Source: an uncultured Acidobacteriota bacterium (lineage in GTDB: Bacteria; Acidobacteriota; Thermoanaerobaculia; Gp7-AA8). From it: a DNA stretch of 64,000 nt. The notes under the pieces were generated by a model that was not told the origin of the DNA, ran no database searches, and saw nothing but the letters and a program-made list of their open reading frames with translations. This document shows positions 3,037 to 64,000 of this stretch, in pieces (positions within the stretch are counted from its first letter, which is position 1; each line of letters begins with the position of its first letter). The DNA lies in the NCBI GenBank assembly GCA_963741955.1, contig CAVUKB010000001.1, forward strand, positions 128,001-192,000. Direction: 5' to 3'. The position numbers and the translations under genes are program-made.

Positions 3037-3093
3037 GCCCGAAGGTGGAGCGCTTCCGAGCCGGCGGCGATGCGAAACAGCGTCCCCACGACA

Positions 3094-3126
3094 CGCCTCG
3101 TCGAGCGTGAGGAAGACCGGGGACAC
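3094..3126 (-). pseudogene. Probable N-terminal stub of a Doc/Fic toxin
   Basis: GTG just after the AbrB stop reads MSPVFLTLDEA, like Doc N-termini (xxFLTLDEV), then similarity ends. Confidence 0.5.
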
Positions 3127-3129
3127 CCG

Positions 3130-3357: not shown

Positions 3358-3596
3358 GTTCGTACGAATGCCGGAAGCCGTTCGTACCATTCCACCTCGT
3401 CCACTTCCCGCCGGTCAACTCCGGGACCGCATCGTCGCCTTCGGGATCCTCGGACCCAGTTTGTGATCTCCACCTTCCTTCAGCTTCTGACTCGGACATA
3501 CTCCTCTATCTGACCGGGACCTCCTTCGATGGAGCGCGCGCGAACGGGAACTTCGGGGCGCTCCGGGCGTTGTCTCTGTGGACGCGCGAAAGTCTG

Positions 3597-5231: not shown

Positions 5232-5460
5232 GGGCCACCTTTTGCGGAGCGTCGGTGAGCATCCCCTCGCCAGGCAGTGGGGAGGAGTCACGGCGGTCCT
5301 CGAGACGTTGGCCACGACGGGCGTCATTGCGCTGGGTGGCCTCGGGCGGTCACGCCGCGTGCAGGAGATCTCTCTCGTTTAACCTCCGGCATCGCGGGCG
5401 CGCGCCGCGCCCGCCTGGATTTCCGAGACGGGCAACAGGAATCGTCGGCGTGGGCGGGTT

Positions 5461-5556
5461 CCCCGGGTTACGGCGCGGAGCGCCTTCACCCGGGGCAATT
5501 GTCAATCGCGCCTACGGCGCTGGAAGTTGCGCGAGTGGGAATGGGGGTCGCTTCGT
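5461..5556 (+). repeat. Dispersed repeat family D, copy 2
   Basis: CCCCGGGTTACGGCGCGGAGCGCCTTCACCCGGGGCAATTGTCAATCGCGCCTACGGCGCTGG. Confidence 0.8.
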
Positions 5557-5657
5557 CGTGAAGGTCCACCAAAGTCCTGCACGGATGTCGCGGGGCCGTG
5601 ACGGGAGACGATCTTCCCGCGGACACTCCTCTGGTATCCTTGCCCGCGGAGAAAACC

Positions 5658-7835
5658 ATGAAACGACTCCTGATCGCGAGCTGTGCCGCCTTCCTCTCCG
5701 TCGCCTCATTCGCTGCATCCGGCCATCCCGACTCCAGCACCCCCCCTCCGAAGCAGCCCGGCGGCAGCCAGTATCCCACCGCGCACCGCTCGGATCACGT
5801 CGACACGTACTTCGGCGTCAAGGTCGCCGATCCGTACCGCTGGATGGAGAACATCGACTCCCCGGATGTTCAGAAGTGGATCGCGGCCGAGAACGCGCTG
5901 ACACTCCCCTATCTGAAGAAGCTTCCCGGACAGACCTGGTTGAAGGACCGGCTGACGAAGCTCTGGAAGTACGAGCGCTACGGAGTTCCGCTCCAGCGCG
6001 GCGGGCGCTTTTTCTACACCCACAATGACGGGCTTCAGGATCAGGACGTCCTCTTCGTCGCCGAGCGCCCCGAGGCAGAGGGGAAGGTGCTCCTCGATCC
6101 GAACACCTTCAGCAAGGACGGCACGGTCGCACTCGCGCGGTGGACCCCGAGCTGGAACGGTAAGCTGCTGGCCTACGGCACTTCCGACGGCGGAACCGAC
6201 TGGACGACGTTTCACGTTGTCGACGTCGACAGCGGCACGAAACTCGATGACCTGATTCGATTCACGAAGTTCACCGACGTTTCCTGGGCGCACGACGACG
6301 GCGGCTTCTATTACAGTCGCTACCCGCTCGACGCGGAAGGACACGCGGACGAATCGAAAGCGGTGAGCGTCTTCTTCCACAAGCTCGGCACTCCGCAGAG
6401 CTCCGACCGCGAGATCTACGCTCTGCCGAAGGAACCGAAACACGATCCGTACGCCATGGTCACCGAAGACGGCGGGTACCTGATCGTCGACGTCCAGCAG
6501 GGGTACGACTCGAACGCCATCCACGTGATTCCTCTGAAGGAGGGCAAGCCGGGCGCCGCGATCCGCCTCTTCGACCAGTGGGATGCGCTCTACCGATTCG
6601 TCGGCAACAAGGGCTCCCTGCTGTACTTTTCGACCACCCGCAACGCGCCGCGGGGGAGGGTGATCGCGGTCGATCTCCGGCATCCGGATCCGGATCAATG
6701 GACCGAGGTGGTTCCGGAGCAGAGCGAGACGCTGAGCGAGGCGGAATACACGGGTGGAGAGTTCTTCGCCCAGTATCTCGAGGATGCGCACTCGCGGATC
6801 CGCGTCTGGGGCGCGGACGGCGAACACCTCCGGGACGTCGAGCTCCCGGGGCTCGGGAGCGCGGCCGGTTTTGCCGGGCCCGACGACGCCAAGGTGACGT
6901 TCTACAGCTACACGAGCTTCACGACGCCGCCGACGATCTACCAGTACGACATCGCCAGCGGCAAGAGCAGCATCGATCGGAAACCGGACGTGCCGGTGAA
7001 AGACCTCGACTCGTTCGAGGTACAGCAGGTGTTCTATCCCAGCAAGGACGGCACGAAGATCCCGATGTTCATCGTGCACCGGAAGGGGTTGAAGCTCGAC
7101 GGAACGGCACCCACCCTCCTCTACGGCTACGGCGGGTTCGACATCTCACTGACTCCGACCTACAGCCTCGCGCGGATCGTCTGGCTGGAGATGGGAGGGG
7201 TGTACGCGATGCCGAACCTCCGCGGGGGAGGGGAGTACGGCGAGGCGTGGCACGAAGCCGGAACGAAGCTGCACAAGCAGAACGTGTTCGACGACTTCAT
7301 CGCGGCGGCGAAGTACCTCGAAAAGGAGGGCTACACGAGCCCCTCCAGGCTCGCCATCAGCGGAGCGTCCAACGGAGGGCTGCTGATCGGCGCGGTGCTC
7401 AACCAGCAGCCGCAGTTGTTCGGAGCCGCTCTTCCCGCGGTCGGCGTGATGGACATGCTCCGGTACCAGACCGCGAGCGCGAATGCGGAGGGGTGGTCGA
7501 GCGACTTCGGCAAGTCGACCGACAGCAGGGAGATGTTCGAGGCGCTGCGGGCGTTCTCGCCAGTTCACAACACGCGCGAGAAAGGATGCTTTCCGCCGAC
7601 CCTGATCACCACCGCGGATCACGACAACCGCGTGGTGCCGTGGTACAGCTTCAAGTACGCGGCGGCGATGCAGCACGCGCAGAGCTGCGCGAACCCGGTG
7701 CTGATCCGTATCGAGACCCGTGCCGGGCACGGAGCCGGGAAGCCGACCTGGATGAAGATCGAAGAGATCGCCGACGAGTACGCGTTCCTTGCGAAGGCGC
7801 TCGGCATCCCGATGCCGCCGCAGACGAAGCCGTGA
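5658..7835 (+). CDS. Secreted prolyl oligopeptidase (S9A)
   Basis: Signal peptide; DPYRWME, YGYGGF, NLRGGGEYG, GASNGG (Ser), ADHDNRV (Asp), AGHGAGK (His). Confidence 0.96.
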   Translation: MKRLLIASCAAFLSVASFAASGHPDSSTPPPKQPGGSQYPTAHRSDHVDTYFGVKVADPYRWMENIDSPDVQKWIAAENALTLPYLKKLPGQTWLKDRLTKLWKYERYGVPLQRGGRFFYTHNDGLQDQDVLFVAERPEAEGKVLLDPNTFSKDGTVALARWTPSWNGKLLAYGTSDGGTDWTTFHVVDVDSGTKLDDLIRFTKFTDVSWAHDDGGFYYSRYPLDAEGHADESKAVSVFFHKLGTPQSSDREIYALPKEPKHDPYAMVTEDGGYLIVDVQQGYDSNAIHVIPLKEGKPGAAIRLFDQWDALYRFVGNKGSLLYFSTTRNAPRGRVIAVDLRHPDPDQWTEVVPEQSETLSEAEYTGGEFFAQYLEDAHSRIRVWGADGEHLRDVELPGLGSAAGFAGPDDAKVTFYSYTSFTTPPTIYQYDIASGKSSIDRKPDVPVKDLDSFEVQQVFYPSKDGTKIPMFIVHRKGLKLDGTAPTLLYGYGGFDISLTPTYSLARIVWLEMGGVYAMPNLRGGGEYGEAWHEAGTKLHKQNVFDDFIAAAKYLEKEGYTSPSRLAISGASNGGLLIGAVLNQQPQLFGAALPAVGVMDMLRYQTASANAEGWSSDFGKSTDSREMFEALRAFSPVHNTREKGCFPPTLITTADHDNRVVPWYSFKYAAAMQHAQSCANPVLIRIETRAGHGAGKPTWMKIEEIADEYAFLAKALGIPMPPQTKP

Positions 7836-7842
7836 ACGCGAA

Positions 7843-7945
7843 CCCCGGGTTCCGGCGCGGAGGGCCTCCAGCTGGGGCAATCGTCCATCGCGTCTGCGGC
7901 GCTTGGGGTCGTGCGGGAGGGAGTGGAGCGTGCTTTGCGGGGACG
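7843..7945 (+). repeat. Dispersed repeat family D, copy 3 (diverged)
   Basis: CCCCGGGTTCCGGCGCGGAGGGCCTCCAGCTGGGGCAATCGTCCATCGCG, directly after the S9 stop. Confidence 0.72.
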
Positions 7946-7979
7946 GTGCCGGTGGCCTCGGTGAGGAATCTGAGTTTCA

Positions 7980-8043
7980 GGGTGCCCCTTACGCTTCCCT
8001 CTCACCGAAGACGGGCGTCGGCTGAAGACATGACCCCGGACGT
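7980..8043 (+). repeat. Degenerate copy of repeat family E
   Basis: GCCCCTTACGCTTCCCTCTCACCGAA...TCGGCTGAAGACATGACCCCGGACG matches the units at 60277-60770. Confidence 0.75.
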
Positions 8044-8187
8044 GAAGGCCGCGCGAACGGGAGTGGCGAGAAGGATGAGGAACTGTAGCCGGTCCGCATC
8101 GGAGCGAAAGATCTTCTTTCGTTCGTTGCCGCGCGAGGTGACGTGGTGAACCGCGCCTGGAAACTCGAGTCGAAGGGTGCGTGCCAT
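8002..8187 (-). pseudogene. Truncated IS200-like/RAYT (Y1 HUH) transposase
   Basis: MARTLRLEFPGAVHHVTSRGNERKKIFRSDADRLQFL is the classic N-terminus; the frame breaks into the family E repeat before the HUH motif. Confidence 0.85.
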
Positions 8188-8459
8188 GCGATCGAGAGTA
8201 CCTCGGAATGGGCGAAAGACCGAGGGTTCTACTCCTCGTAGAATCGTCGCCGGAACGGAGCGGTTCGACCGGAGGTACCAACCGAGAGTGTTCGAGATGA
8301 ATGTCGTAGAATCCACGGTGCGACGCGATGATCTGAAGTGACGCACGGAGAAGGGTTTAGGAGATGCATCCGATAGGCGAAGCCTTGACCCCATCCTTCG
8401 CGTCCGGTTCGGAGGGAGGGGCGGAGTGATCCTCCGTCCCTACCCCTATCGCCCATTGA

Positions 8460-9197
8460 TCAGTAAGTTCCCGGCAGTATCGTGACCACCTGAGTTTCAT
8501 CGTTGGTGATACTTACGAGGCTCCAGATCGGATCTGCGTCGCTTTCAACCTCGATACGAACCTCGGTGGCGTCAGCCAGTTCCGGAATACCGAGCGAATC
8601 GATCTGCGCTTCGCCACGGTCCGTGGTGATAGTGAACTCGCGGATAGCGAGAGTGGCACCCGAATCGGCGTCGTAGTAGCGAACATGGCCGTGGCCCGCA
8701 CGCGGTGAAAAGGAATAGACACGGACCGTATGCCGGAACGGGGTTGCCGTGGGGACGCGAACGAAGGAGAATCGCAGACGTTTCGCGCTGTTCCAGTCGA
8801 CCGCCGGTACGAAGGTGCCCCAGTTGAGCGCGGTGCGCGACTCGTCGAAGACGCGCACCTGGAAAGCGAGGCTGGCGCGGTCGGCGCTCTCGACCGAGAA
8901 CCAGGCTGCTCTAGCTCCGTCCGCATAGGCGGCAAGATCAATCGGTTCGATCTCTGTTCCGGCGGGAACGCTCACGATTGCGCAATCTTGGCCCGAACAC
9001 GGAGGAGAGAGGAGAATTACGTGCGAACCGGTATTCAGGACTCGCACGTCGGATGTCCAGACTGATCCAAATGCGCCGCGGACGCTATCGGCAACGACGG
9101 GAATCAGCAGCCACGAAGCCTCGGTACCTTGGGCGCGAACGGACGTCGTTACCAAGAACGAGAGAACTAAGATCGCCATTATGCATATCTTACGCAT
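8460..9197 (-). CDS. Secreted hypothetical protein
   Basis: Signal peptide; LLIPVV..GAFGSVWTSDVRVLN and SITNDETQVVTI motifs; GGAG RBS. Confidence 0.8.
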   Translation of the reverse strand: MRKICIMAILVLSFLVTTSVRAQGTEASWLLIPVVADSVRGAFGSVWTSDVRVLNTGSHVILLSPPCSGQDCAIVSVPAGTEIEPIDLAAYADGARAAWFSVESADRASLAFQVRVFDESRTALNWGTFVPAVDWNSAKRLRFSFVRVPTATPFRHTVRVYSFSPRAGHGHVRYYDADSGATLAIREFTITTDRGEAQIDSLGIPELADATEVRIEVESDADPIWSLVSITNDETQVVTILPGTY

Positions 9198-9209
9198 GAA
9201 CACTCTCCA

Positions 9210-10054
9210 TCAATACGTGTTGAGCGCGAAAATTGCGAACGGTTGACTCGCATCCGTGAGATATCCGGGCAGCCAGGGGCGAGAAGCCCCAAGGTCCTTC
9301 GAATGGACGTACACCGTGAAAGATGACCCTGAGTATGGCGGAACGACGACGAGTTCGACGTTGTTCGTGCTCTCAGGCGATGGCATGATGCATGTTGCGT
9401 AGCTCTGCTCTGTAGAGGGGTTGATGTAATTACCCCAATAGGTCGCGCAGTTGCCGAAGTATACCTCAAGATCGAGATCTCTGGTGAGGAGCGGGCTTGC
9501 ATTCCCGGGTGCGGACGCGAAGTCGGACCACGCGAGCACGATTACCGTCCGTTTTGATTGATCGGCCACCGTGAACGTCCGGGACCGCTGTTGGCCTGAA
9601 TCCGTGAAGTTAGCGAGGGTTCCTTCGTCCAGGTAGGTTTTTGTCCAAGCGTTGGTCGAGGAGGTAGCCAAGGTAGAGACGTCCGAATCCCTGACCCGTG
9701 GTGATGTCAGGAATTCCGTTGACGGTGCCAGCGGTGTATTGATCCTTCCCGCCCTTGAGCGAATATGCACCACCAACGAGCGCGGCTTTCATCATGGCAG
9801 CCGAGAACCGATTCGTCGTTGTTCGGCCTTGTTTCGCGTTGATGAGAGCTATCGCGGCGGCGGCTTGTGGAGACGCGAAGCTCGTTCCTGAAGACAGCTG
9901 GTAATCAGCGTCGGTCGTCGTGCCGTACCCTGTGCTGCAAAAGTACGTTGAATAGCTGTGTTTCATGCGAGCGACCGTAACCAGTGTGGATGGCGCGACG
10001 AGTTCCGGTTTGATTCTGCCGTCCCCTGCAGCAACGCCGCGGCGACTCACGAGA
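9210..10054 (-). pseudogene. Subtilisin-like S8 peptidase, 3' fragment with a frameshift
   Basis: DGRIKPELVAP, SGTSFASP (catalytic Ser), AAMMKAALV, GQGFGRL in one frame; IVLAWSD, DLDLEV, NNVE in another (shift near 9655); 5' part replaced by MITE B. Confidence 0.85.
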
Positions 10055-10203
10055 CTCCGACGGGCGCCACGGCTCCCGCCGTGGCCGCGCAGATCGCCTT
10101 CAGAACGGCAACGAGACGACACCTGCGGCAGATGCGCAGTAGCTCCGCGCATCTGCTCTGTGAACACCCACAGTGCCCCTTAAGTTCAGGCCATTGGGGC
10201 TAG
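10055..10203 (-). mobile_element. MITE family B, partial copy (one end only)
   Basis: Reverse complement CTAGCCCCAATGGCCTGAACTTAAGGGGCACTGTGGGTGTTCACAGAGCAGATGCGCGG... matches 31714-31861. Confidence 0.85.
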
Positions 10204-10247
10204 GCGTGGGCCCGGCGTTGACGCGTGCCGTACGCCTCCAACGTCGC

Positions 10248-10549
10248 CCTGATCCATTCGAGCGTCATCACGTGCGACAGCGTCGCCTCCCACACCGCCT
10301 GCATCTGCTCGCCCTTGAAGAGAGCGCGATCGAAGTGTCACTGGGTCAGTGGATTATGAGAGAGAACCGACAGGCGAAGGCCTGACCCCCCCGTCGATCC
10401 TGATCCATTCGAGCGTCATCACGTGCGACAGCGTCGCCTCCCACACCGCCTGCATCTGCTCGCCCTTGAAGAGAGCGCGACCGAAGTGTCACTGGGTCAG
10501 TGGATTATGAGAGAGAACCGACAGGCGACGGCCTGACCCCCCCGTCGAT
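10248..10549 (+). repeat. Direct tandem duplication, 2 x 151 bp
   Basis: CCTGATCCATTCGAGCGTCATC... starts at 10248 and 10399; about two substitutions between copies. Confidence 0.9.
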
Positions 10550-10685
10550 CGTCCAGTACGGGTTCGTTCGTGGTCTCGAGCCGGTCACCTACGTCGAGGT
10601 GATTCTCGAACGCTTCGAGCATTACCGGCAATTCGTGCACGAGAACCCGGACCGAGCGGGATGATGTGGCTCTGGCGTGCATGGT

Positions 10686-10787
10686 CCCCGGGTTCTGGCG
10701 CGGAGCGCCTTCACCCGGGCAATTGTCAATCGCGCCTACGGCGCCTGGAGTCGCGCGAGTGTGGGTGGAGGTCGCTTCGTGGGGACG
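10686..10787 (+). repeat. Dispersed repeat family D, copy 4
   Basis: CCCCGGGTTCTGGCGCGGAGCGCCTTCACCCGGGCAATTGTCAATCGCGCCTACGGCGCCTGG. Confidence 0.8.
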
Positions 10788-10833
10788 ATTCACCGAAGTC
10801 CTGGAGTACGGAGGTCGAGACCTCGGCCGCTCA

Positions 10834-11475
10834 TCACTCTCCCACGTCGATGGTCATCCCTCGCGCCGGAGGAGGCGGCACCTTGTGCGGGATGAATCCG
10901 AGCAGGAGACCGGCGGCGAAGCCGCCGAGGTGTCCGGTGTTGTCGATCCCCGGGATGGTGAAACCGAGGAAGACGTTCAGGAGGGCCCAGAAGATGAGCT
11001 GATGGGTGAGGCTGCGAGCCCACGGCTGGTGACGCCACACCGGCGAGCGGCGGATGGCGATGATCAGCGCGCCGAGGATTCCGAAGATCGCGCCGCTCGC
11101 GCCGGCGGAGAGGATCTGGCGGTGATGGATCAGAGCCCAGTACGAGCTCGCGGATGAGGCGACGAGGCCACTGACGAAGTACGTGAGAAGAAAGCGGGCC
11201 TTGCCGAACATCAGCTCGAACGCGGCGCCGAGCTGATAGAGAGCCCAGAGATTGAGCGCAATGTGCAGAAGCCCGATATGGAGAAACATCGCGGCGAGAA
11301 GACGCCAGTACTGCCCGTTGACGAAGATCCCGGCGGTGACTGCACCGAGATCGTAGAGGACCGGCATGCTCTCCTGGCCGACGTTCCAGGCCCGCATCCC
11401 GCTCGTGATCTCGATCACGAACACGAAGATGATCAGTCCGACGATGGCCATGGTGGCCGGAACTCTTCTGTACAT
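10834..11475 (-). CDS. Rhomboid intramembrane serine protease
   Basis: YWRLLAAMFLHIGLLHIALN, GASGAIFG, HLGGFAAG; ATG overlaps the SDR stop (TGATG). Confidence 0.95.
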   Translation of the reverse strand: MYRRVPATMAIVGLIIFVFVIEITSGMRAWNVGQESMPVLYDLGAVTAGIFVNGQYWRLLAAMFLHIGLLHIALNLWALYQLGAAFELMFGKARFLLTYFVSGLVASSASSYWALIHHRQILSAGASGAIFGILGALIIAIRRSPVWRHQPWARSLTHQLIFWALLNVFLGFTIPGIDNTGHLGGFAAGLLLGFIPHKVPPPPARGMTIDVGE

Positions 11476-12278
11476 CAGGGCTTCTTCCTTTCGAGTAACG
11501 CGGAGGTCACGCGCATGAGGAAGTGTGCGGCGCGGGGAAAGAATTCCTTCAGTCGCATGAAGATGGCGGCTTCCGCCGGAAGGATGATCCGGTATGACCC
11601 TCCCTCTATCGCGCGGCGGATCGCGCGCGCGACGTCCTCCGGCGAGAGAGGGCGGAGAAGTCGGGATGCGGCGGGGATCGCGGCGCGGTCGGCCGATTGG
11701 AAGAATTCGCCCCCTTCCGTGACGCCGGGACAGATCATCGACACGCGGATCCCGTCGCGCAGCACCTCGTCGCGAAGTGACTCGGTGAATCCGATCAGGG
11801 CGGCCTTCGTCGCGCCGTACCCTCCCATCCCGGCCACGCCCATGATCCCCGCGATCGAAGAAACGTTGACGATCGCGCCGCACCGCTGCGATTTCATGAT
11901 CGGGAGAACCGCGAGGGTGGTGTTCACCGCGCCGAAGTAGTTCGTCTGCATCATCCGCTCGAGCTCGGAAAATGGAGTCGAGTCGATTCTGCCGAGGATT
12001 CCGAATCCGGCGTTGTTCACCAGGATGTGGATCGAACCGAATCGCTCCACCGCGGCTGTGGCCAGGAGGCGGGCCGCTTCGGGATCGGCGACGTCGGTCG
12101 GCACCACGATGCATTCGGTTCCCCGGGCGCGGCACTCCGCGGCGACATTTTCGAGACGCTCGGCGCGGCGTGCGGCGAGGACCAGACGGCACCCTGCGAC
12201 TGCGAGCTCCAGTGCGGTGGCCCGGCCGATCCCGCTGGAGGCCCCGGTAACGATCGCAGCTCGGTCGGGCAGCTTCAT
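11475..12278 (-). CDS. SDR family oxidoreductase
   Basis: [17 protein letters not shown]. Confidence 0.93.
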
Positions 12279-12478
12279 TGCATCATCAGACTGCGCAGTA
12301 TCAGCGACAATGGGGGAGATTTCAACCCGCGGAAGGCGCGGAGACCGCCGGATCGCAACGGTTTTGTGGCGAAAAATCCGGCTCTTCCCGGACCTCCCGG
12401 AGAATGGGATATACTCCGGTCCGGGTGGCGTACCTCCGTTGTGAGCACGCCGTCTTGAACGAAAAAGGAGGCGCACGC

Positions 12479-13447
12479 ATGGCGTTCGAAGACGTCAAGA
12501 AAATCTGGATGAACGGCCGGTTCGTCGATTTCGAAGACGCGAAAATCCACGTCCTGAGCCACGTCGTGCATTACGGATCCGGCATTTTCGAAGGAGCGCG
12601 CTGCTACAACACGAGCCAGGGGCCGGCGATCTTCCGCCTTCCCGAGCACGTCCGCCGCCTCTTCGACGGCTGCAAGATCTACCGTATGCAGATTCCATTC
12701 TCGCCGGATGAGATCCGTCAGGCGTGCATCGATGCGATCGCGCTCAACGAGTTCGAAGACTGCTACATCCGTCCGATCGTCTACCGCGGGTTCGGCACTC
12801 TGGGCGTCCATCCCGGCAAGTGCCCGATCGACGTGACCATCGCAGTCTGGAAATGGGGAGCCTACCTCGGCGCCGAAGCTCTCGAGCAGGGCGTCGACGT
12901 GCGGGTCTCGTCGTGGAACCGAATGGCGCCGAACACGTTCCCCGCCATGGCCAAGTCGACGGCGAACTACATGAACTCGCAGCTGATCCGGATGGAAGCC
13001 GGGATCGACGGCTACTCGGAAGGAATCGCACTCGACGTTTACGGGTACGTCTCGGAAGGCTCGGGCGAGAACGTCTTCATCGTCCGCGACGGGAAGGTCA
13101 TCACCCCGCCGCTCGGCGCGTCGATCCTTCCCGGAATCACGCGGGACACCACCATCCGGCTCGCGCGCGATCTCGGATACGAGGTGGTCGAGCAGCTCAT
13201 CCCGCGGGAAGCGCTCTACATCGCCGACGAAGTCTTCTTCAGCGGGAGCGCCGCGGAGATCACCCCGATCCGCTCGGTGGATCGGATCAAGATCGGAGAC
13301 GGAGTTCGCGGACCGATCACCGAACGGATCCAGAAAGAGTATTTCGCCTATATCCGCGGGGAGACCGAGGATCGTCACAACTGGCTCACATTTGTGGAGC
13401 AGGAAAAATCGACCCGCAGAGAGAAGAAGGAAGCGGTCGCCCGGTAG
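12479..13447 (+). CDS. ilvE: Branched-chain amino acid aminotransferase
   Basis: [43 protein letters not shown]; AGGAGG RBS. Confidence 0.96.
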
Positions 13448-13537
13448 CGGGTTCGCTTCCGTAACCTCCGGCTCCTTTGGGCCGTCCACTGAGCGAGCAT
13501 CCAGCCCGGACAGTCCGGGCCAGAGGGCTCGAGGTGA

Positions 13538-16198
13538 ATGTCATCCATTCGTGATTCCGAGAGTGGAAGCAGGCGGCGCGTCGACGTCCTTCCGGCGTCA
13601 CCGGCGGAGATCGTCACGGAAGAGAACGAGTCCGGTCCTCCCGGATTCTTCTCCCGGTGGCTCCGCCGGCTCATGCCACTGCTGGTCGTCGCGATCTTCT
13701 CGATCGCGCTGACCATCCTCTACGGCATCCTCCGCGACTACCATTACCAGCAGGTTCTCCACTACCTCCGCACTCTCCGTCTATCCGTGATCTTCGGTGC
13801 AGTGGCTCTCACTGCGCTCGGTTATTTCGTCATGACGCTGTACGACGTCCTGGCGATCGAGTACGTGGGCCGTGACGTGCCGTACCGGCGGATCGCTCTC
13901 GCTTCGTTCATCGGCTACGCGTTCAACAACAGCATGGGCTTCTCCGGAGTGATCGGCGGATCGCTCCGCTACCGGCTCTATTCGGCATGGCGGCTCTCTG
14001 CCGTCGACATCGCGAAGGTGATCGCGTTCGTCTCTGCGACCTTCTGGCTCGGATTCCTCACCCTCGCGGGAGCCTTCTTTCTCGCCGCGCCGCCCGTGCC
14101 TCCAGCGGCGGTGCATCTGCACGTGCATCCGCGACCGCTCGGCGTGCTGTTCGTGATTCCCGTTCTGGTCTACCTCGGGCTGACCCTCGCCGGACGCCGC
14201 TCGTTCCGTCTGCGGCAGTGGCGCTTTCCTCTTCCCCACGCTCCTCTGGCAATCGGCCAGATCGTCGTCTCGTCGGTCGACTGGCTGATCGCGGCAGCCG
14301 TCCTCTACGTTCTTCTTCCGAACGATCCGGACCTCAGCTTTCCGCACTTCATCGCGATCTTCCTTCTGGCGCAGATCGCAGGACTGCTCAGTAACCTGCC
14401 GGGTGGGATCGGCGTGTTCGAGCTGGTCATTCTGCTGTTTCTCTCTCCGGCGGTGCCTCCGGATCAGGTCCTGGGCGGGCTGCTCGCGTTCCGCGGCATC
14501 TACTATCTGGTCCCGCTCGGATCGGCGGTGCTGCTGCTGGCGACGCACGAAGTGCTCGAGAAGCGGCAGGGGGTGGCGAGGGTTGCGCGCCTCTTCGGCC
14601 GGTGGGCTCCCGGTGTCGTTCCTCACGTCTTTGCGTTCACTACGTTCGTGGCCGGAGCGATCCTGATTTTTTCCGGCTCCACTCCGTCGATCCGTTCGAG
14701 GCTCGCATGGCTGAATGATTTTCTCCCGCTCCCGGTGATGGAGATCTCGCACATGCTCGGGAGTGTCGCCGGCGTTCTGCTGCTGGTGCTCGCCCGCGGT
14801 CTTCAACGACGGCTCGACGCCGCCTGGGTGCTGACCGTGGCGCTCCTCGGCGGAGGGATCGTCGTCTCGCTGCTGAAAGGACTCGACTACGAGGAGGCGA
14901 TCTTCCTGGCGGTGATGCTGGTGGCGCTGGTTCCGAGCCGCGGCCACTTCTACCGGCAGGCCTCGCTCTTCACGCAGCGGTTCGCGCCCGGGTGGCTGGC
15001 TGCCATCGCGGTGGTCCTGATCGGATCGATGTGGCTCGGGTTCTTCTCTTACAAGCACGTCGAGTACTCGAACGAGCTCTGGTGGCGATTCAGCATGCAC
15101 GCGGAGGCGCCACGATTCCTCCGGGGGACCGTGGCCGGGATCGCGGTCCTGTTCTTCATCGCCGGAGCGAGACTCCTTCGTCCCGTGGCCCGGCGCCGTG
15201 AGCCACTACCCCAACCCGATTCCGCCCGGTTGGCGGAGGTGATCGCCGGATCGAAGTCGACCGCTGCGAACCTCGCGCTGCTCGGCGACAAGTCTTTCCT
15301 CTTCAGTGAGAGTGGTGAGAGTTTCATCATGTTCGGTGTCGAGGGGCGCAGCTGGATCTCGATGGGAGACCCGGTCGGACCGGACGAGGAGAAGGCGGAT
15401 CTCGTCTGGCGTTTTCGCGAGCTCTCGGACCGGCACGGCGGATGGACCGTCTTCTACGAAGTTCACCGCGAGTGGCTGCCGCTCTACGTCGATCTCGGGC
15501 TGGCGCTGCTCAAGCTCGGAGAGGAAGCGATCGTTTCGCTCGACACGTTCACTCTCGACGGCGGGGAGAGGAAGGGCCTGCGCAAGACGATCCGGAAGAC
15601 GGAAGCGGACGGTGCGACATTCGAGATCGTGGCTCCCGAGAGCTTCCCCGAGATTGCCGGAGCGGTGCGGGAAGTGTCCGATGGCTGGATGAAGGAGAGA
15701 CACGTGCGGGAGAAGGGGTTCTCACTCGGGCGTTTCGACGAGAACTATCTCTCCGGGTTCCCGCTGGCCCTGGTTCGCCGGGAGGGACGGATCGTCGCGT
15801 TCTCGAATCTCTGGACCACCGCGACTCGGGAAGAGCTTTCCATCGACCTGATGCGTCATACGGAAGACGCGCCTGCAGGGGTAATGGACTTTCTCTTCGT
15901 CAACCTGATGCTGTGGGGGAAATCGGAAGGCTACCGCCGGTTCAACCTCGGTGTGGCTCCGCTCTCGGGGCTGGAGAACCGTGCGCTCGGTCCGCTGTGG
16001 AATCGGATCGGAGCGCTCGCGTTCCATCACGGCGAGAACTTCTACAACTTTCAAGGGTTGCGTCAGTACAAGGAAAAATTCGATCCGGTCTGGTCTCCGG
16101 TCTATCTCGCATCGCCGGGAGGATTCGTCCTTCCTCGGGTGTTGACCAATATCGCTTCGCTGATCTCCGGTGGATTGAGGGGAGTGGTCGCAAAATGA
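13538..16198 (+). CDS. mprF: Bifunctional aminoacyl-phosphatidylglycerol flippase/synthetase
   Basis: Multi-TM N-terminus (PGGIGVFE, RYRLYS); C-terminal synthetase GDPVG, KLGEEA, EKGFSLG, DLMRH, YNFQGLRQYKEKF. Confidence 0.95.
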   Translation: MSSIRDSESGSRRRVDVLPASPAEIVTEENESGPPGFFSRWLRRLMPLLVVAIFSIALTILYGILRDYHYQQVLHYLRTLRLSVIFGAVALTALGYFVMTLYDVLAIEYVGRDVPYRRIALASFIGYAFNNSMGFSGVIGGSLRYRLYSAWRLSAVDIAKVIAFVSATFWLGFLTLAGAFFLAAPPVPPAAVHLHVHPRPLGVLFVIPVLVYLGLTLAGRRSFRLRQWRFPLPHAPLAIGQIVVSSVDWLIAAAVLYVLLPNDPDLSFPHFIAIFLLAQIAGLLSNLPGGIGVFELVILLFLSPAVPPDQVLGGLLAFRGIYYLVPLGSAVLLLATHEVLEKRQGVARVARLFGRWAPGVVPHVFAFTTFVAGAILIFSGSTPSIRSRLAWLNDFLPLPVMEISHMLGSVAGVLLLVLARGLQRRLDAAWVLTVALLGGGIVVSLLKGLDYEEAIFLAVMLVALVPSRGHFYRQASLFTQRFAPGWLAAIAVVLIGSMWLGFFSYKHVEYSNELWWRFSMHAEAPRFLRGTVAGIAVLFFIAGARLLRPVARRREPLPQPDSARLAEVIAGSKSTAANLALLGDKSFLFSESGESFIMFGVEGRSWISMGDPVGPDEEKADLVWRFRELSDRHGGWTVFYEVHREWLPLYVDLGLALLKLGEEAIVSLDTFTLDGGERKGLRKTIRKTEADGATFEIVAPESFPEIAGAVREVSDGWMKERHVREKGFSLGRFDENYLSGFPLALVRREGRIVAFSNLWTTATREELSIDLMRHTEDAPAGVMDFLFVNLMLWGKSEGYRRFNLGVAPLSGLENRALGPLWNRIGALAFHHGENFYNFQGLRQYKEKFDPVWSPVYLASPGGFVLPRVLTNIASLISGGLRGVVAK

Positions 16199-17706
16199 AA
16201 CGCAGATCGAATGAAGGGATTCAGGATTCAGAGGAAAGAAGGAAGGGGAGATTCGGATCCCTCGCGACGATCTCGATCGCAGCGGCCCTGCTCATTTCGG
16301 TCGCGGCATCGTCGTTCGCACGAACGTCTTCGCGCGAGTCGACCGTCGAATTCGGTCGTTTCGGAACGGTGCACTTGTACGCTCCACCGCATCCGGCCTC
16401 GCGACTGGTGGTCTTCGTCTCCGGTGACGGCGGGTGGAACAAAGGGGTGGTGGACATGGCGCGCGAGCTCTCCACGATGGGCGTGATCGTCGCCGGCGTC
16501 GACATCCGGTCGTATCTTCGGAACCTCGAGAGCGTGCCGGGAACGTGCTCCTATCCGGCCGCCGATTACGAAGGGTTGAGCCAGTTCCTCCAGAAGAGGC
16601 TCGGGTTCGATCGGTACGAGCCGCCGGTTCTGGCCGGCTACTCTTCCGGAGCCACGCTGGTCTACGCGCTGCTCGCCGAGGCACCTCCGAACACGTTCAA
16701 GGGCGCGATGAGTCTCGGGTTCTGTCCGGATCTGCCGTTGAAGAAGCCGTTCTGCCGGGGCAACGGACTCGAATGGAGACCTGGCCCCAAAGGGAAAGGA
16801 GTGATCTTCGAGCCGGCGAAGGATCTCCGGCAGCCGTGGATCGCGTTCGACGGAGAGATCGATCAGGTGTGCGACGCGAAAGCCGCTCGGGCATACGTGG
16901 CGAACGTTCCGGGAGGGGAGATGGTCCTTCTTCCGAAGGTGGGACACGGGTTCTCGGTTCCGCGAAACTGGCTCGGACCGTTCAAGGCGGCCTACGGGAG
17001 AATCGCAGCGGCCCCGATGGAGCGGGATTTTTCGAGACCGTCCGCGTCGACGGTGAAACGCGAGACAGGAGCTGCAGCGGTCGTCGCCGCGCCTGCCGAC
17101 CTTCCCCTGATCGATGTCCCGCCCTCCCGTCCGGGCGCTGCGTGGGTCGCGGTGATTCTCTCCGGTGACGGTGGCTGGGCGGGAATCGACCGCTCGATCG
17201 GGAACTTCCTCGCCGCGAACGGCGTGCCGGTGGTCGGGCTCAATTCTCTCCAGTACTTCTGGCACCGGAAGACGCCCGAGACCGCAGCGCACGATCTCCA
17301 GAGACTCATCGAGTACGCGATGGTGCGTTGGAACGTTCCTGAGGTGGTGCTGATCGGGTATTCACGCGGGGCGGACGTTCTCCCCGCGATGGCGTCGCGT
17401 CTTCCGGAGCAGCTGCGGAGCCGGGTTCGGATGGTCGCGCTCCTCGGTCCGAGCCGGACCACTACGTTCGAGTTTCACCTCTCCGACTGGCTCTCCGACT
17501 CCGAGCGGGGATCTGCGGTCGCGCCGGAGGTGGAGAAGTTGCGGGGGACGAAGATCCTCTGTGTCTACGGTGCGGACGAGAAAGAGAGTCTCTGCAGAGA
17601 TCTTGCACCGGAGATCGCCACGCCGATGGAGATGGGTGGCGGACACCACTTCGACGGCGGCTATGAGGAGATTGCCAGAGCGATCATGAGAGACTCGGAA
17701 CGATGA
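16195..17706 (+). CDS. acvB: AcvB/VirJ-family lysyl-PG hydrolase, two-domain
   Basis: Two SGDGGW motifs, GYSSG and GYSRGAD, GGHHFDG; ATGA-coupled to mprF. Confidence 0.88.
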   Translation: MKRRSNEGIQDSEERRKGRFGSLATISIAAALLISVAASSFARTSSRESTVEFGRFGTVHLYAPPHPASRLVVFVSGDGGWNKGVVDMARELSTMGVIVAGVDIRSYLRNLESVPGTCSYPAADYEGLSQFLQKRLGFDRYEPPVLAGYSSGATLVYALLAEAPPNTFKGAMSLGFCPDLPLKKPFCRGNGLEWRPGPKGKGVIFEPAKDLRQPWIAFDGEIDQVCDAKAARAYVANVPGGEMVLLPKVGHGFSVPRNWLGPFKAAYGRIAAAPMERDFSRPSASTVKRETGAAAVVAAPADLPLIDVPPSRPGAAWVAVILSGDGGWAGIDRSIGNFLAANGVPVVGLNSLQYFWHRKTPETAAHDLQRLIEYAMVRWNVPEVVLIGYSRGADVLPAMASRLPEQLRSRVRMVALLGPSRTTTFEFHLSDWLSDSERGSAVAPEVEKLRGTKILCVYGADEKESLCRDLAPEIATPMEMGGGHHFDGGYEEIARAIMRDSER

Positions 17707-18431
17707 GGGAGAGGCAGCTTCCGATTCCGGACCTCGGATTACGGACGTGTCTGGCGGCATTGCTCCTCTTCTCCGCCTGTGCGGGATCAGGAACCGTCGC
17801 TCCGGCTCCGGCTCTCGATTCGCTGTCGGATCTTTCGCTGATCCGTTTCGCGCCGGAAAGCTCCGGGACCATGGCGATCATTCTCACCGGCGACGGCGGC
17901 TGGCGCCGCGTGGACGAGAAGATCGGCAAGCGACTGCGGGAACGGGGAGTCTCGCTCCTGGGGTGGAACATGCCTGCCTATCTCGGGCATCGGCGCACGC
18001 CGCACGAGGTGTCGGACGATCTCGCGCGGATCATGCGGCATTACCTCGAGCGGGGCGTGAGCCGGTTTCTTCTCATCGGCTATTCGCGTGGCGCGGACAC
18101 CCTCCCGTTCATGGCCAGCCGTCTTCCGGCGGATCTTTCCAGTCGTGTCGCCGTGATCGCACTTCTCGCCCCGAGCCACACCGCGGCGCTCGAGTATCAT
18201 TTTTTCGCCCGCCTCTACGGGTCGCGACCGCCGCAGTATCCGGTCCTCCCGGAGATCGAAGCGCTGAAAGGACAGCGGGTGCTCTGCATCGCCGGCGGAC
18301 GCGATCGCGATGCGATCTGCCGCTCCCTTCCGGAGTCGGTCGCGAAGGTCACCATCGTCGACGGATCGCATCACTTCGCAGGCGGGTACTACGCGATTGC
18401 CGATCAGATCCTCGCCGAAGCCTCGCGGTGA
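17703..18431 (+). CDS. Second AcvB/VirJ-family protein, single domain, probable lipoprotein
   Basis: TGDGGW, GYSRGAD, GSHHFAG; lipobox-like FSAC. Confidence 0.85.
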   Translation: MRERQLPIPDLGLRTCLAALLLFSACAGSGTVAPAPALDSLSDLSLIRFAPESSGTMAIILTGDGGWRRVDEKIGKRLRERGVSLLGWNMPAYLGHRRTPHEVSDDLARIMRHYLERGVSRFLLIGYSRGADTLPFMASRLPADLSSRVAVIALLAPSHTAALEYHFFARLYGSRPPQYPVLPEIEALKGQRVLCIAGGRDRDAICRSLPESVAKVTIVDGSHHFAGGYYAIADQILAEASR

Positions 18432-43123: not shown

Positions 43124-43902
43124 CCCTGTTCGACAAATTTCAGGCGCTTCAGTTCACGTGGCGTGACGCGGTCGACGTGATCGTCGTGTCGTTCGTGATC
43201 TACAACGTCCTCGTGCTGATCAAAGGGACGAGAGCGATGCAGATGGCGATCGGCCTGATGATCGTCAGTGCGACGTATTTCGTCGCGCATGCGCTCGATC
43301 TGATCGCGCTCGAGACTCTCTCCCGGGAAGTTCTGTTCTATCTTCCGTTCGCGATCATCGTCCTCTTTCAGCATGAGATCCGCCGGGCCCTCACGACGGT
43401 CGGTCGAAAACCGTGGGTGCGGCTGTTCGGCCATCGCACCGACGTCGAGCTCGAAGACCTGGTGCGCGCGTCGGTCGAGCTGGCCCGCGAGCGGGTCGGA
43501 GCGCTGATCGCCATCGAAGGGAGCGAAAGTCTTCGCACCTTCGCCGAGAGCGGGAAGAAGCTGGACGCGGTGGTCTCGGAGGCGTTGGTCCGCAACATCT
43601 TCACTCCCGGGACTCCGCTCCACGACGGCGCGGTGATCATCAACGGCAATCGCATCGTCGCCGCCGGCGCGTTTCTTCCGCTCAGCTCGAATCCGCAGCT
43701 TCCTCCTTCTCACGGGACGCGGCACCGCGCCGCCCTCGGATTGAGTGAAGAAACGGACGCGCTGGTCATCGTGATCTCCGAGGAAAACGGCACCATCGCC
43801 GTCGCGGTGGAAGGAACGCTGCACGAGAATCTGAGTGCGGTCAGCCTCCGCGGCATTCTCAACGAGCGCTTCCATCCCGAGGGTGAGCAGAATGCGGCTT
43901 GA
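43120..43902 (+). CDS. cdaA: Membrane diadenylate cyclase CdaA/DacA
   Basis: Three TM segments, FQHEIRRAL, PLHDGAV, GTRHRAA, SEE. Confidence 0.95.
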   Translation: MTLFDKFQALQFTWRDAVDVIVVSFVIYNVLVLIKGTRAMQMAIGLMIVSATYFVAHALDLIALETLSREVLFYLPFAIIVLFQHEIRRALTTVGRKPWVRLFGHRTDVELEDLVRASVELARERVGALIAIEGSESLRTFAESGKKLDAVVSEALVRNIFTPGTPLHDGAVIINGNRIVAAGAFLPLSSNPQLPPSHGTRHRAALGLSEETDALVIVISEENGTIAVAVEGTLHENLSAVSLRGILNERFHPEGEQNAA

Positions 43903-60270: not shown

Positions 60271-60950
60271 GGGTTGCCCCTCACCCTTCCCTCTCCCCGA
60301 ATGTCGTTCCTCGGCTGAAGACATGACCCCGGACGGGGAGAGGGTGCGTCCCGCCGAGCGGCGCGGTCATCGCGTTGGCGGCTCGGCGAAGGCCGGCCTG
60401 GATTGCACGATCTTCGGATTCGGCTCTCGGGGTCGCCCCTCACCCTTCCCTCTCCCCGAATGTCGTTCCTCGGCTGAAGACATGACCCCGGACGGGGAGA
60501 GGGGAGGCCGCGCGAGTGGGAGAGGGTGATGCTTCGTGGGGAACGGGGCTCAAAGTTCCGGACTGGGGATGGTTCGGGGTCCATCGCCTCAATCCCGCCC
60601 GGCGTACGTATGTTCCGCTCGACTCTGCGGTCGCGTTCGTCGCTCCCATCGGCGAAGGCCGGCCTGGATTGCACGATCTTCGGATTCGGCTCTCGGGGTC
60701 GCCCCCTCACCCTCCCCTCTCCCCGAATGTCGTTCCTCGGCTGAAGACATGACCCCGGACGGGGAGAGGGGAGGCCGCGCGAGTGGGAGAGGGTGATGCT
60801 TCGTGGGGACGGGGCTCAAAGTTCCGGACTGGGGATGGTTCGGGGTCCATCGCTTCGATCGTGCCAGGCGTACGTATATTGCCGCTCGACTCTGCGGTCG
60901 CGTCCGTCGCTCCCATCGGCGAAGGCCGGCCTGGATTGCACGATCTTAGG
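60271..60950 (+). repeat. Repeat family E array: three CCCTCACCC..CCTCTCCC...GGGGAGAGGG hairpins inside ~266-bp tandem units
   Basis: Hairpin copies at 60277, 60436, 60702; anchor TCGGCGAAGGCCGGCCTGGATTGCACGATCTT at 60383, 60649, 60916. Confidence 0.92.
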
Positions 60951-61002
60951 TGTGAGCGCGCGTTTCGTTTGGCAAAATTTTGCGTTTCGTTTGGCAAAAA
61001 AT
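60951..61002. mobile_element. Putative Mu/Tn7-type transposable element end
   Basis: TGTGAGCG terminus followed by two contiguous 22-bp repeats with the identical 18-bp core GCGTTTCGTTTGGCAAAA; truncates the family E unit. Confidence 0.6.
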
Positions 61003-61168
61003 ACTATTGTTGAATTTCGCCCGTCGGGGGAGGCGCGGCGCTGATGCGAATAACAGCGTTCCCGGCCAGCGAGCTGGCCCGGCGGCATGGCCGCCCAGCC
61101 GAGGGCGGTTCCAATATTCACCATGGCCGATGAGCTCCGCCGCTCACCTGGGTCGAGGCGATGCGCCC

Positions 61169-61402
61169 CTACAAGATAACGACCCGAAGCTGCTGGGCGG
61201 GGATGCCGGAGAGTGAGGAAATGCGGTCCGAGGCGGCGGCGACGAGAGCGGATCGGATTTGGCCGACGGTGTCGATCGCGACGGAGAGAGTCAGATGCGC
61301 GTGGAGGCCGGCGTCGCTCGTGGCGGCGGTCATTCGGACGGTCACGGTCTCGCCCGCGGACGCGAACGCGACGTCCTGGATGACGCAGATCGCCGTCGTC
61401 AT
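61169..61402 (-). CDS. Small hypothetical phage protein
   Basis: MTTAICVIQDVAF...; ATGA-coupled to the upstream stop. Confidence 0.6.
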   Translation of the reverse strand: MTTAICVIQDVAFASAGETVTVRMTAATSDAGLHAHLTLSVAIDTVGQIRSALVAAASDRISSLSGIPAQQLRVVIL

Positions 61403-61920
61403 CGGCCGGCTCCGTGGAGGCACTGGATTGCGGTGATCCGATATTCGGGGCCCGGCCCGGATCCGGAGGCGGGATCGCAGCAGATGAACGACCCCACCCC
61501 GAGCGCCGTCGTCAGAATGTTGCCCGCGAGGGCTCCGTCGTAGATGACCGTGCCATTGGACGAGGAAAACCGAATGTACCAGGTCGATCCGCTCTGGTAT
61601 GTTTCGATCCGGACCTTCGCCGCCTTCGTGCCCGCAATTACACCCTCGCTCAAACAGGCGAGCCCATCCAGCCCGGTGTCGACGACCGTCGCCAGTCCAC
61701 CGGCCGTCTCGCGCTTCACAAATTGCAAGTGATCACCGGAGGCGACATCGTCCGTGCCCTTGTAGTTGTACGCGAGGCGAACGAATGCACCGACTCCGGT
61801 CGAGTAGATCGCGTCTTCGATGTTTCCGGTGCCGTCGAAGAGCCCCACGATGACGAGCGTGCCCGCGGGACGGAAATACCCGTTGTTACCTAGGCTCGAT
61901 GTCGAGAGCGTGAGTAACAT
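61399..61920 (-). CDS. Hypothetical beta-rich phage protein (or frameshifted tail C-terminus)
   Basis: Gly/Thr/Ser-rich 173 aa; overlaps the tail gene end; AGGGG RBS. Confidence 0.65.
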   Translation of the reverse strand: MLLTLSTSSLGNNGYFRPAGTLVIVGLFDGTGNIEDAIYSTGVGAFVRLAYNYKGTDDVASGDHLQFVKRETAGGLATVVDTGLDGLACLSEGVIAGTKAAKVRIETYQSGSTWYIRFSSSNGTVIYDGALAGNILTTALGVGSFICCDPASGSGPGPEYRITAIQCLHGAGR

Positions 61921-64000
61921 ATTCCCCTGGCGTCGCTTGCTGCCACCCAGCTTTCGTCGGCCCGGCGAAGGATGCCTGTAGCCTGACGGTCGGAGTCATG
62001 TACGCGGACCAAAAAATCGCGGTGCCGAACTGGTTCGGCGCGACGATGCCCTTCGCGCCGGGCGTGGTGAGCCCCGGTTGCACCTGCCATGTCCAGTCGG
62101 GCTCCGGAGAATACACCGCGGAGTAGCTTCCGGACTTGTGAGGACCTTCGAGGTTGCTCGCGAACGCCACGGCTGCGACCTCGAAATTGATAGTCACCGT
62201 GCCGGATCGGTCGTATCCAATCGCGCGGTCGGTGAGCGGCTCGAGCTGGAACGGAGTCGCCTCGGCAATCGATCGAGCGTCCACGGACGCTGCGACCTGT
62301 AGCGAACCCGATGCGAAGTCGTAGATCCGGTGCTGCGTCGCATATTTGAACTTCTGACCCTCGATCCATTGGAGCTCCCGGAACGGTACCGCGCCTGTTG
62401 TGGGTTTCGCGAACCGCCAATAGCGGTGTGCGCCCGGAGGCATCCATTCGATCGTCGCGTATCCGGGTTGCCGGTCGTAGTTCTTCGTCGTGATCCCCGT
62501 CCATGCCGCACCATCGTCAGACCAGGAGATCGCCGCGAGGAAGCCGGCCGCCGCCGTGTAGGCTCGGCACGACACGAATTCCTTCGCGTTTCCGGCGCCG
62601 AGATCGATCTGCACGTAGGATGCACCGGACGAATTCCAGGTGAAGGCATTCGTCGCGGGGTCGCCGTCGTTGACGGCCGACGGGGTGAAGAGCGAGCATC
62701 CGGAGGAGCTCCAGTATGCCGCGGACCAGAACTGCTCGATCCGATCGTAGGGCGCAGTCCACCAGGCCGTCTTTCCGTCGGCCGAGACGAACGGGCCGAG
62801 GACCGCAGGCGGCGTCTGGATCACGTCGACGGCGGCCGGATTGATCGTCACTCCGACCGATTTCCCATACCTCCCGACGAGATACGCGGTGATCTCATAG
62901 TTTCCGCCGTTGTTCACGGGGTCGATCAGCACCGGCGAGCTCGCGGCGGTCGTGATGAGCCGAGCCTCGCCTCCGTCGACCGCAGACCAGATCTCGACAC
63001 CGGTGAGCCAGGCGTAATTCGGGAGGTCGAACGAGACGCGGGCCCGCGCTCTCGCGACCCCGTCACCATCCACGTATAGCTCCGGAGCGAAGGCGAGATT
63101 CGCGACGTCCGGCGGATCGTCAGACGGCGACGGAATGGAGCTCGCAATTTTCCCGGGATCAGCGACCACGGCGTCGGAATAGCAGGCGGCGGAGTACTCG
63201 AGGAGGGAGACGTTCGCGGTCACGTTCGGCTGGCGATTGCGCGCCCACACTAGAAAGTCCTGCGCGGCAATCCCGCGGCGCGTTACCGTCTGTTGCACGC
63301 GCGCACCGATCGGCTGATCGGCTGTCGCGAGCCATCCGGCCGCGAGCCGGAAATCGAACTGCAGGCGGTTCAGATAGTAGATCGCGAGCCGGCGGGCTTG
63401 CGATCGCGAGCGGATCCAGGGGAGCTGGTAGACCACAGGCCGTCGCTCCTCCGTCCCCGCCGTGACTGCCGCCGTCTCGACGGACTCGAAGTCGCGGGTC
63501 AGCGCGTTCGCCTCGTCGGTGAACCAGACCTCGACGTAGTTCGGCCGCTGGGTCGGATCTTCCCGTGCCCCAGAATCCGAATCCTTGATGAGGTCCCCGT
63601 CGGAGTAGATAGCGGCGACGGCCTGCGGCCGGTCGAGCCAGAGCCGCCACTGATTCCCTTGGTAAAAGTGATAGCCGCCCATGAGGAGCCCGAACGTCTT
63701 CTGCCAGTCGCTCGCCGATGTTGCGTCCTGCACCGCGACGTGCGACGCGTATCGCGGCTTTCCGCCCACGACCTCGTCGCAGACGTCTGCCGCGTCAATC
63801 CAGTCCTGGGTGACGAGACGCGAGGCGTCGAGATTCTTCCCCTCTGCATCGAGGTGCCAGTCGTAGTCCTGCAGGGCCGTGTTCTCGCTGTAACCGACAA
63901 GCATTGATCGGAGGTCGAGCACCTTCCGGCCTCGGATCGAAATATCGATCGTTGGGAACTCGGGCCAGAAGTAGCTGATGATCCCGAGCCAGACGACGAG
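61886..64000 (-). CDS. Phage tail tip/host-specificity protein (TipJ-like) with a discoidin-like domain; 5' end outside the window
   Basis: Frame open to the edge: PTIDISIRGRKVLDLR...YSENTAL..YD; NYVEVWFTD, LPWIRSRSQARRLA, LLEY...YSD; YVQIDLG...HRYWRF (F5/8-like). Confidence 0.85.
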   Translation of the reverse strand, partial: LVVWLGIISYFWPEFPTIDISIRGRKVLDLRSMLVGYSENTALQDYDWHLDAEGKNLDASRLVTQDWIDAADVCDEVVGGKPRYASHVAVQDATSASDWQKTFGLLMGGYHFYQGNQWRLWLDRPQAVAAIYSDGDLIKDSDSGAREDPTQRPNYVEVWFTDEANALTRDFESVETAAVTAGTEERRPVVYQLPWIRSRSQARRLAIYYLNRLQFDFRLAAGWLATADQPIGARVQQTVTRRGIAAQDFLVWARNRQPNVTANVSLLEYSAACYSDAVVADPGKIASSIPSPSDDPPDVANLAFAPELYVDGDGVARARARVSFDLPNYAWLTGVEIWSAVDGGEARLITTAASSPVLIDPVNNGGNYEITAYLVGRYGKSVGVTINPAAVDVIQTPPAVLGPFVSADGKTAWWTAPYDRIEQFWSAAYWSSSGCSLFTPSAVNDGDPATNAFTWNSSGASYVQIDLGAGNAKEFVSCRAYTAAAGFLAAISWSDDGAAWTGITTKNYDRQPGYATIEWMPPGAHRYWRFAKPTTGAVPFRELQWIEGQKFKYATQHRIYDFASGSLQVAASVDARSIAEATPFQLEPLTDRAIGYDRSGTVTINFEVAAVAFASNLEGPHKSGSYSAVYSPEPDWTWQVQPGLTTPGAKGIVAPNQFGTAIFWSAYMTPTVRLQASFAGPTKAGWQQATPGEYVTHALDIEPR

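Follow-up and report, generated by a model that had tools for sequence, protein, structure and literature searches.

Transposable phages, for which the name 'Saltoviridae' has been proposed, include siphovirus-tailed members such as B3 and D3112, and in phage Mu the sites R1 and R2 are contiguous and L1 lies apart. The key features of these phages, as listed in a section of one account, are a 5/6-bp duplication, a length of 36-39 kb and the presence of transposition genes (PMC8705779), and a section of another describes three MuA sites at each end of Mu, with different spacings (PMC3145075). The present analysis concerns a 64,000-nucleotide stretch of DNA from an uncultured Acidobacteriota bacterium (positions 128001-192000 of contig C1 of the genome G000; hereafter the window), which holds at its far right one border of a 17,143-bp element. 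The element is interpreted here, with a probability of roughly 0.8, as a defective, internally deleted Mu-like prophage of the siphovirus type; it is placed with Mu because of its ends, its insertion scar and its gene families, and is regarded as defective because its own transposition genes and the full length are both missing.

The genome (5.44 Mb in 16 contigs, 99.1% complete) is a bin from a soil metagenome, and the element sits within its 513-kb contig C1. The locus analysed, L001, corresponds to C1:188001-207500 (19.5 kb); adding 60000 to an L001 coordinate gives the window coordinate and adding 188000 gives the C1 coordinate. Thirty-two open reading frames (ORFs) of the element locus, picked with the aid of third-position GC content (GC3), were scanned against Pfam, PHROGs and NF families. 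Relatives were sought by portal among the 127 genomes of the host's order (G000 counted in), and two of the five portal-positive relatives, G074 and G053, were retrieved for detailed comparison; the gaps were placed by tblastn run both ways between L001 and these two. Read-contigs were taken from Logan for X1, a soil-metagenome run that is a possible source of the genome (98% of sampled words), and for X2, a second run of the same study (9%), for which the comparison uses short pieces only.

Ends of the element and the insertion scar

The features that define the window-side end are as follows.

60277..60950, no strand: host target, about 2.5 tandem copies of a 266-267-bp repeat (repeat families D1-D3)
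60946..60950, no strand: target-site duplication (TSD) TTAGG, copy 1, found by sequence inspection
60951..60958, plus strand: element terminus 5'-TGTGAGCG, start of an imperfect terminal inverted repeat
60959..61002, plus strand: two contiguous 22-bp repeats, CGCGTTTCGTTTGGCAAAATTT (60959-60980) then TGCGTTTCGTTTGGCAAAAAAT (60981-61002), with cores at 60960-60977 and 60982-60999
60951..64000: part of the 17,143-bp element that lies in the window (whole element C1:188951-206093)

The 8-bp terminus and the two contiguous 22-bp repeats at 60951-61002 are present exactly as given in a preliminary description of the window, and the repeat-family listing of the window places the 18-nt core twice near 60951 at a spacing of 22 bp. 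With up to three mismatches allowed, the core has four matches in L001 against 0.01 expected, a count reached in none of 200 shuffles. The same search over both strands of the 5.44-Mb genome returned five matches, four of them at the two ends of the element and the fifth on contig C7, with three mismatches and without comparable context. The sites of the far side lie at L001 17950-17967 (plus strand, one mismatch, internal) and 18067-18084 (minus strand, three mismatches, terminal), the latter running into ..AAACTCACA and then TTAGG. The far terminus, ..CTCACA, falls outside the window at L001 18093 (C1:206093); an inverted 22-mer ending in ..CA and followed by TTAGG had been predicted for a far end beyond position 64000. 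The element is thereby bounded at L001 951-18093, a length of 17,143 bp, with the predicted duplication TTAGG on either side (copy 2 at C1:206094-206098, also outside the window), and 21 of 27 bases of the terminal inverted repeat agree between the two ends, the termini being TGTGAG and CTCACA.

The two flanks are consecutive parts of one host repeat unit, which is split by the element and resumes at C1:206099 after the second TTAGG; unit positions 2-87 align with C1:206100-206184 at 93% identity, and excising the element rebuilds one unit of the 267-bp repeat. Uninterrupted copies of the repeat have TTCGG where the occupied unit has TTAGG. The host repeat also holds a segment of about 95 bp that includes a perfect inverted repeat of 15 bp (CCTCCCCTCTCCCCG / CGGGGAGAGGGGAGG). 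Blast gave 134 high-scoring segment pairs for this segment on six contigs, among them those of a long array at C1:82879-86270 with a period of about 151 bp; the family of this segment looks like a dispersed family of the repetitive extragenic palindrome (REP) or miniature inverted-repeat transposable element (MITE) kind.

The borders are thus those by which the end of a transposable phage is recognised, namely TG...CA termini, repeated sites of about 22 bp and a 5-bp TSD, within the 5-6 bp that such phages duplicate at non-specific sites. An integrase-type prophage would be bounded by att repeats and carry a tyrosine or serine recombinase; in agreement with the preliminary description, the element does not show this: ARAGORN found no tRNA in the 64-kb window, the nearest tyrosine integrase (PF00589) is 86 kb off at C1:292238, and the serine recombinase family (PF00239) has no match in the whole G000 genome.

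The 22-mers of the window mark the late, tail-side end. The minus-strand ORFs run toward it, bearing out the earlier statement that tail genes read toward this end, and the plus-strand early ORFs run toward the far end. The two 22-mers are putative transposase-binding sites and in position presumably resemble R1-R2 of Mu. The proposal that a right end follows the tail genes accords with the full-length prophage of G074 (contig C75; same bacterial family as the host), which has two contiguous sites at its tail-gene end. This prophage could be delimited to the single base: it is 41,273 bp long, is flanked on each side by CATTC, and has the termini (TGTGAG/TGTAAG) TGTGAGTTCGCGGAATCTTTGGGG.. and, reading inward from the opposite end, TGTAAGCTCGCGAAATCTTTGGGG.., after which comes a second, contiguous site. 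In both the element and the G074 prophage the first site begins at position 10 from each terminus, and the second site of the late end at position 32-33. Searches with the site motif of G074 or of the element did not locate the ends of the G053 prophage. Exact matches to the 18-mer elsewhere (7 viral and 45 genome loci) included none with a TGTGAG terminus or a tandem copy and were taken as chance or unrelated.

Three copies of a further motif, ATGTCCGCTGATC, which contains GATC, lie in a 130-bp stretch between GemA and the early-side terminus (L001 17704-17833; C1:205704-205833); the 10-nt core of the motif has 84 matches genome-wide on both strands. Four GATCAGCGGAAGT-type copies stand at the same place and in the same orientation in G074, where a GATCAGCGGA-type cluster adjoins GemA, and in G053 the motif follows GemA directly, place and orientation being conserved. 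As a guess, the ATGTCCGCTGATC repeats may be a pac site or an enhancer/operator. The G074 prophage also contains, about 2 kb inside its late end (C75:88284-88601; concatenated 43284-43601), a 231-bp direct duplication with CAGATCAGCGGAGCGAGG-type motifs.

Gene content and the missing segments

The genes of the element, from the window-side end to the far end, are given below with lengths in amino acids (aa).

61169..61423, minus strand: 84-aa ORF, last gene before the window-side end, GC3 0.86, no family above cut-off
61399..61920, minus strand: 173-aa ORF, no family above cut-off
61886..64000, minus strand: 868-aa tail-tip/fibre gene, its 3' 2.1 kb in the window (full 61886-64492 = C1:189886-192492)
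L001 4453-4932, minus strand: 5'-truncated tail gene (159-aa ORF)
L001 4742-6151, minus strand: Mu I protease/scaffold (Mu-like_Pro, 6e-46)
L001 6308-7585 (C1:194308-195585), minus strand: Mu F plus PBECR2 (Phage_Mu_F, 4.3e-11)
L001 7582-9180, minus strand: portal (Portal_Mu, 1.3e-55)
L001 9119-10825, minus strand: TerL (PHROGs phrog_675, 7.5e-81)
L001 10822-11454, minus strand: Mu gp27-like TerS (Phage_Mu_Gp27, 4.1e-14)
L001 11451-13889, minus strand: small ORFs over about 2.4 kb, no assigned function
L001 13886-14599, minus strand: 237-aa gene, no assigned function
L001 15083-15645, plus strand: two small early-strand ORFs
L001 ~15636-16040, plus strand: phrog_2113 gene
L001 15952-16713, plus strand: 253-aa protein with multiple helix-turn-helix (HTH) motifs
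L001 16710-17573 (C1:204710-205573), plus strand: GemA (2.9e-11)

The gp27, portal, F, I-protease and GemA assignments all exceed the Pfam cut-offs and the PHROGs results are concordant; genome-wide there is one Portal_Mu match and one GemA match, both within the element. Neither MuA, MuB and rve nor capsid, tail tube and tape measure had a match in Pfam or PHROGs among the 32 scanned ORFs. MuA/TnsB-like and MuB/TnsC-like genes, which had been anticipated beyond position 64000, were found in neither the element nor the genome, and the 'Tn7-style' label of the preliminary description is not supported, no TnsA, TnsB or TnsC having been found. Eight rve matches occur in the genome, none of them in the element, and are apparently multi-copy ORFs of insertion-sequence size. 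The families DDE_2 (PF02914) and Mu-transpos_C (PF09299) had no match in the genome, a weak negative, the controls having matched nowhere either; the G074 transposase as query likewise found no match in G000. Searching G000 by tblastn with all ORFs of the relatives recovered only the retained genes, with no homologues of A, B, capsid, tube or tape measure, and lenient E-values gave nothing credible as a MuA or MuB remnant near the junctions and ends. The element therefore lacks MuA and MuB genes of its own, and falls short of the length of about 36-39 kb and the complete modules for head and tail that characterise transposable phages. Hence, the description as a transposable prophage is upheld for the Mu-type end and the Mu-family genes and not for a live transposing phage, as no MuA-type DDE transposase was found in the element or the genome. 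The 253-aa HTH protein was considered as a transposase stump and rejected, since G053 has the order phrog_2113 - HTH - GemA beside a full MuA of its own.

What the missing segments may have held is indicated by the relatives. Related portals were found in five of the 126 other genomes of the order, at 29-34% identity, and in each of the five a MuA homologue lies at a distance of 8-10 kb from the portal, those of G005, G118 and G119 having been found with the G074 transposase as query; a MuB-type ATPase is present in G074 and G053, the two checked for it. G074 encodes proteins of 764 aa (rve) and 342 aa (AAA_22), a Phage_tube_2 protein and, at the tape-measure position, a 1341-aa ORF without a Pfam match, and G053 an 887-aa protein with Mu-transpos_C, HTH_Tnp_Mu_2 and DDE_2 together with a 335-aa AAA_22 protein. 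The common genes keep the same order in the element, G074 and G053 (tblastn). The protease gene and the homologue of the 159-aa ORF are separated by 12.1 kb in G074 and by 14.4 kb in G053, whereas the two ORFs overlap in the element. Here the protease homology ends at residue 397 (L001 4961) and the tail-gene homology begins at residue 30 of the 159-aa ORF (L001 4845); the latter is without the N-terminal part of about 60 residues common to G053 and G074, and upstream in frame there is Arg/Ser/Pro-rich junk plus a stop. The limits of homology and the lost N-terminal part therefore indicate that two genes are truncated at this junction (junction 1). In the early region, G074 has 9.7 kb between its homologues of the 237-aa gene and of the phrog_2113 gene, against about 1 kb here.

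Viral, genome and metagenome contigs scanned by portal yielded no confirmed close relative, a phylum-wide TerL search (401 genomes including G000) gave three other matches with a best identity of 45%, and deposited phages provided distant matches only, with a best TerL identity of about 25%. The Mu-like prophages of the family occur in two layouts: in G005:C396, G118:C194 and G119:C401 transposase and portal share one strand, which is the arrangement of Mu, and in G074:C75, G053:C69 and the remnant the early and late genes run outward from the middle in opposite directions. The 16S gene of G000 (C5:1284130-1285663) has 80.8% identity to that of one Acidobacteriota metagenome-assembled genome (L022), which is uninformative on phylum and speaks neither for nor against the 'probable acidobacterium' of the preliminary description.

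The 868-aa protein may weakly be regarded as a distant relative of lambda-J/TipJ-type proteins, going by its sequence matches. It scores 22.4 bits (E 1.2e-4) against PF13550, for which the cut-off is 23, and 21 bits against the TipJ family NF040662, for which the cut-off is 140; phage 'tail fiber' genes were matched by tblastn with a best E of 4e-14, the PDB entry 9l9p_S, a 'putative tail fiber protein', with E 0.0024, and a G053 homologue at 27% identity over residues 108-600. The matches behind the earlier term 'TipJ-like', to PF13550 and NF040662, are both below cut-off. Among the other products, the Mu F-like minor head protein has a C-terminal PBECR2 (Barnase/EndoU/colicin-like) nuclease domain (E 3.8e-9). 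The GemA ORF is 287 aa long against 140-141 aa in G074 and G053, and a weak prepilin-type N-methylation motif is found in its additional C-terminal half, which overlaps a minus-strand ORF of 180 aa.

Origin of the element and competing explanations

The scar and the relatives suggest a course of events in which a MuA-type DDE transposase, no longer encoded, would have bound the sites of about 22 bp at the TG...CA ends and joined the ends to target DNA cut 5 bp apart in the host repeat, giving the TTAGG duplication. About 9-10 kb of the early region, which in the relatives holds MuA and MuB, would have been lost, as would about 12-14 kb from the end of the protease/scaffold gene into the tail gene, which in the relatives holds capsid, tail tube and tape measure. 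Both ends, the subterminal motif, GemA with a few early genes, the packaging/portal module and the tail-tip gene would have been kept. The element can neither move nor make particles by itself.

Several observations weigh against this interpretation. No close relative was found (TerL reaches at best 45% identity and the portal 34%), and therefore the sizes and contents of the lost stretches are inferred from distant kin and the gene order of the parent is assumed. The remaining genes look intact, unlike the expectation for long decay, and the early-side junction (L001 14600-15640) shows no recognisable truncated gene. Beside junction 1, L001 4941-4974 is unbridged among the contigs listed, so that this junction depends on the assembly. 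The deletions may have preceded or followed insertion.

The unbridged stretch bears on whether the real prophage is of full length, its internal segments having been skipped by the metagenome assembly. The genome is a soil-metagenome bin, the X1 contigs listed break beside junction 1 (at L001 4940/4975), and single contigs diverge into unlike sequence at L001 5024 (X1) and 4963 (X2); to judge from a consensus of 30 letters, their source may or may not be a related phage or an undeleted form. Such an artefact is nevertheless considered quite improbable, as the element lies inside a 513-kb contig, the depth is even across it at about 9-12, and no orphan contig of the 16-contig assembly holds the missing genes. 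X1 contigs match L001 946-2573 and 12452-18126 with 0 differences, and one of them, of 5,675 letters, covers the entire early-side gap region and the far end, also with 0 differences. An X1 joint of 392 to 18246 was considered as an empty site; it has 14 foreign letters and lies off the element borders, and was taken as another copy of the repeat.

The good condition of what remains would also fit a natural non-autonomous 'mini-Mu' or satellite, that is, a 17-kb form which itself transposed, relying on MuA/MuB provided in trans by a full-length relative and on the capsids of that helper for packaging. The TSD, the two ends and the conserved subterminal motif show no defect and the retained genes are uninterrupted, and laboratory mini-Mu units consisting of ends only move when MuA/MuB are provided in trans, according to the relevant section of one account (PMC3145075). 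This is thought unlikely: the element is present in a single copy with no helper in the genome, no second instance was met in the viral, genome and metagenome collections with the queries used, and junction 1, an out-of-frame fusion truncating two genes, looks accidental. The more specific proposal of a helper-dependent satellite that keeps its ends, motif, terminase, portal and tail-tip fibre, and receives transposase, capsid and tail from a relative, is held to be very improbable; if true, the particles of the helper would be redirected to the element's own host range. A Tn7-like transposon with phage cargo might be suspected from the TGTG... terminus, the 22-bp repeats, the 5-bp TSD and a sub-threshold TnsD match of the HTH protein (E 6e-4, 19.3 bits against a cut-off of 32.4), and is barely credible, since TnsA, TnsB and TnsC are lacking among the 32 ORFs, the HTH protein is conserved as an early gene in full-length Mu-like relatives with a MuA of their own, and the gene content is of the Mu family. 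The defective Mu-like prophage is accordingly preferred.

Comparison with known systems

The biology is ordinary, as Mu-like prophages and their decayed remnants are common. The analysis has its value in that the end of a transposable phage, including the predicted 5-bp duplication, was recognisable from raw sequence alone, and in that single-base borders were obtained for Mu-like prophages in a soil bacterial family without a close cultured phage. In the literature found, as far as the portions consulted extend, no Mu-like prophage of this sort is described from Acidobacteria.

Tn7 resembles the element in its 5-bp TSD, TGT-type terminus and 22-bp repeats; the element differs in being without TnsABC(D/E) and in carrying phage genes. 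With the laboratory mini-Mu (LR) it has in common Mu ends without transposition genes, such units needing MuA and MuB in trans, as described in part of one account (PMC3145075); it differs in being natural, in keeping 17 kb of phage genes and in having no helper in the genome. The likeness to Mu and the transposable phages extends to the TG...CA ends, to several sites of about 22 bp spaced differently at the two ends, to the 5-bp duplication, to the GemA, gp27, portal, F and I-protease genes and to the lack of an integrase. Unlike these phages, the element measures 17.1 kb and is without MuA, MuB, capsid, tube and tape measure; unlike in Mu, its early and late genes are divergent, as in G074 and G053, and the relatives have a tail tube of the siphovirus type (Phage_tube_2).

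The closest comparison is with the G074 prophage, which, unlike the element, has MuA, MuB, a tail tube, the 1341-aa ORF and about 24 kb more DNA; protein identities to the element are only 33-48%, and a homologue of the 868-aa tip protein was not detected in G074. The two share the TGTGAG terminus, the positions of the sites, the two contiguous late-end sites, a 5-bp TSD, the motif cluster by GemA and the gene order. The end layout common to the remnant and this 41-kb relative thus provides concrete candidate transposase sites.

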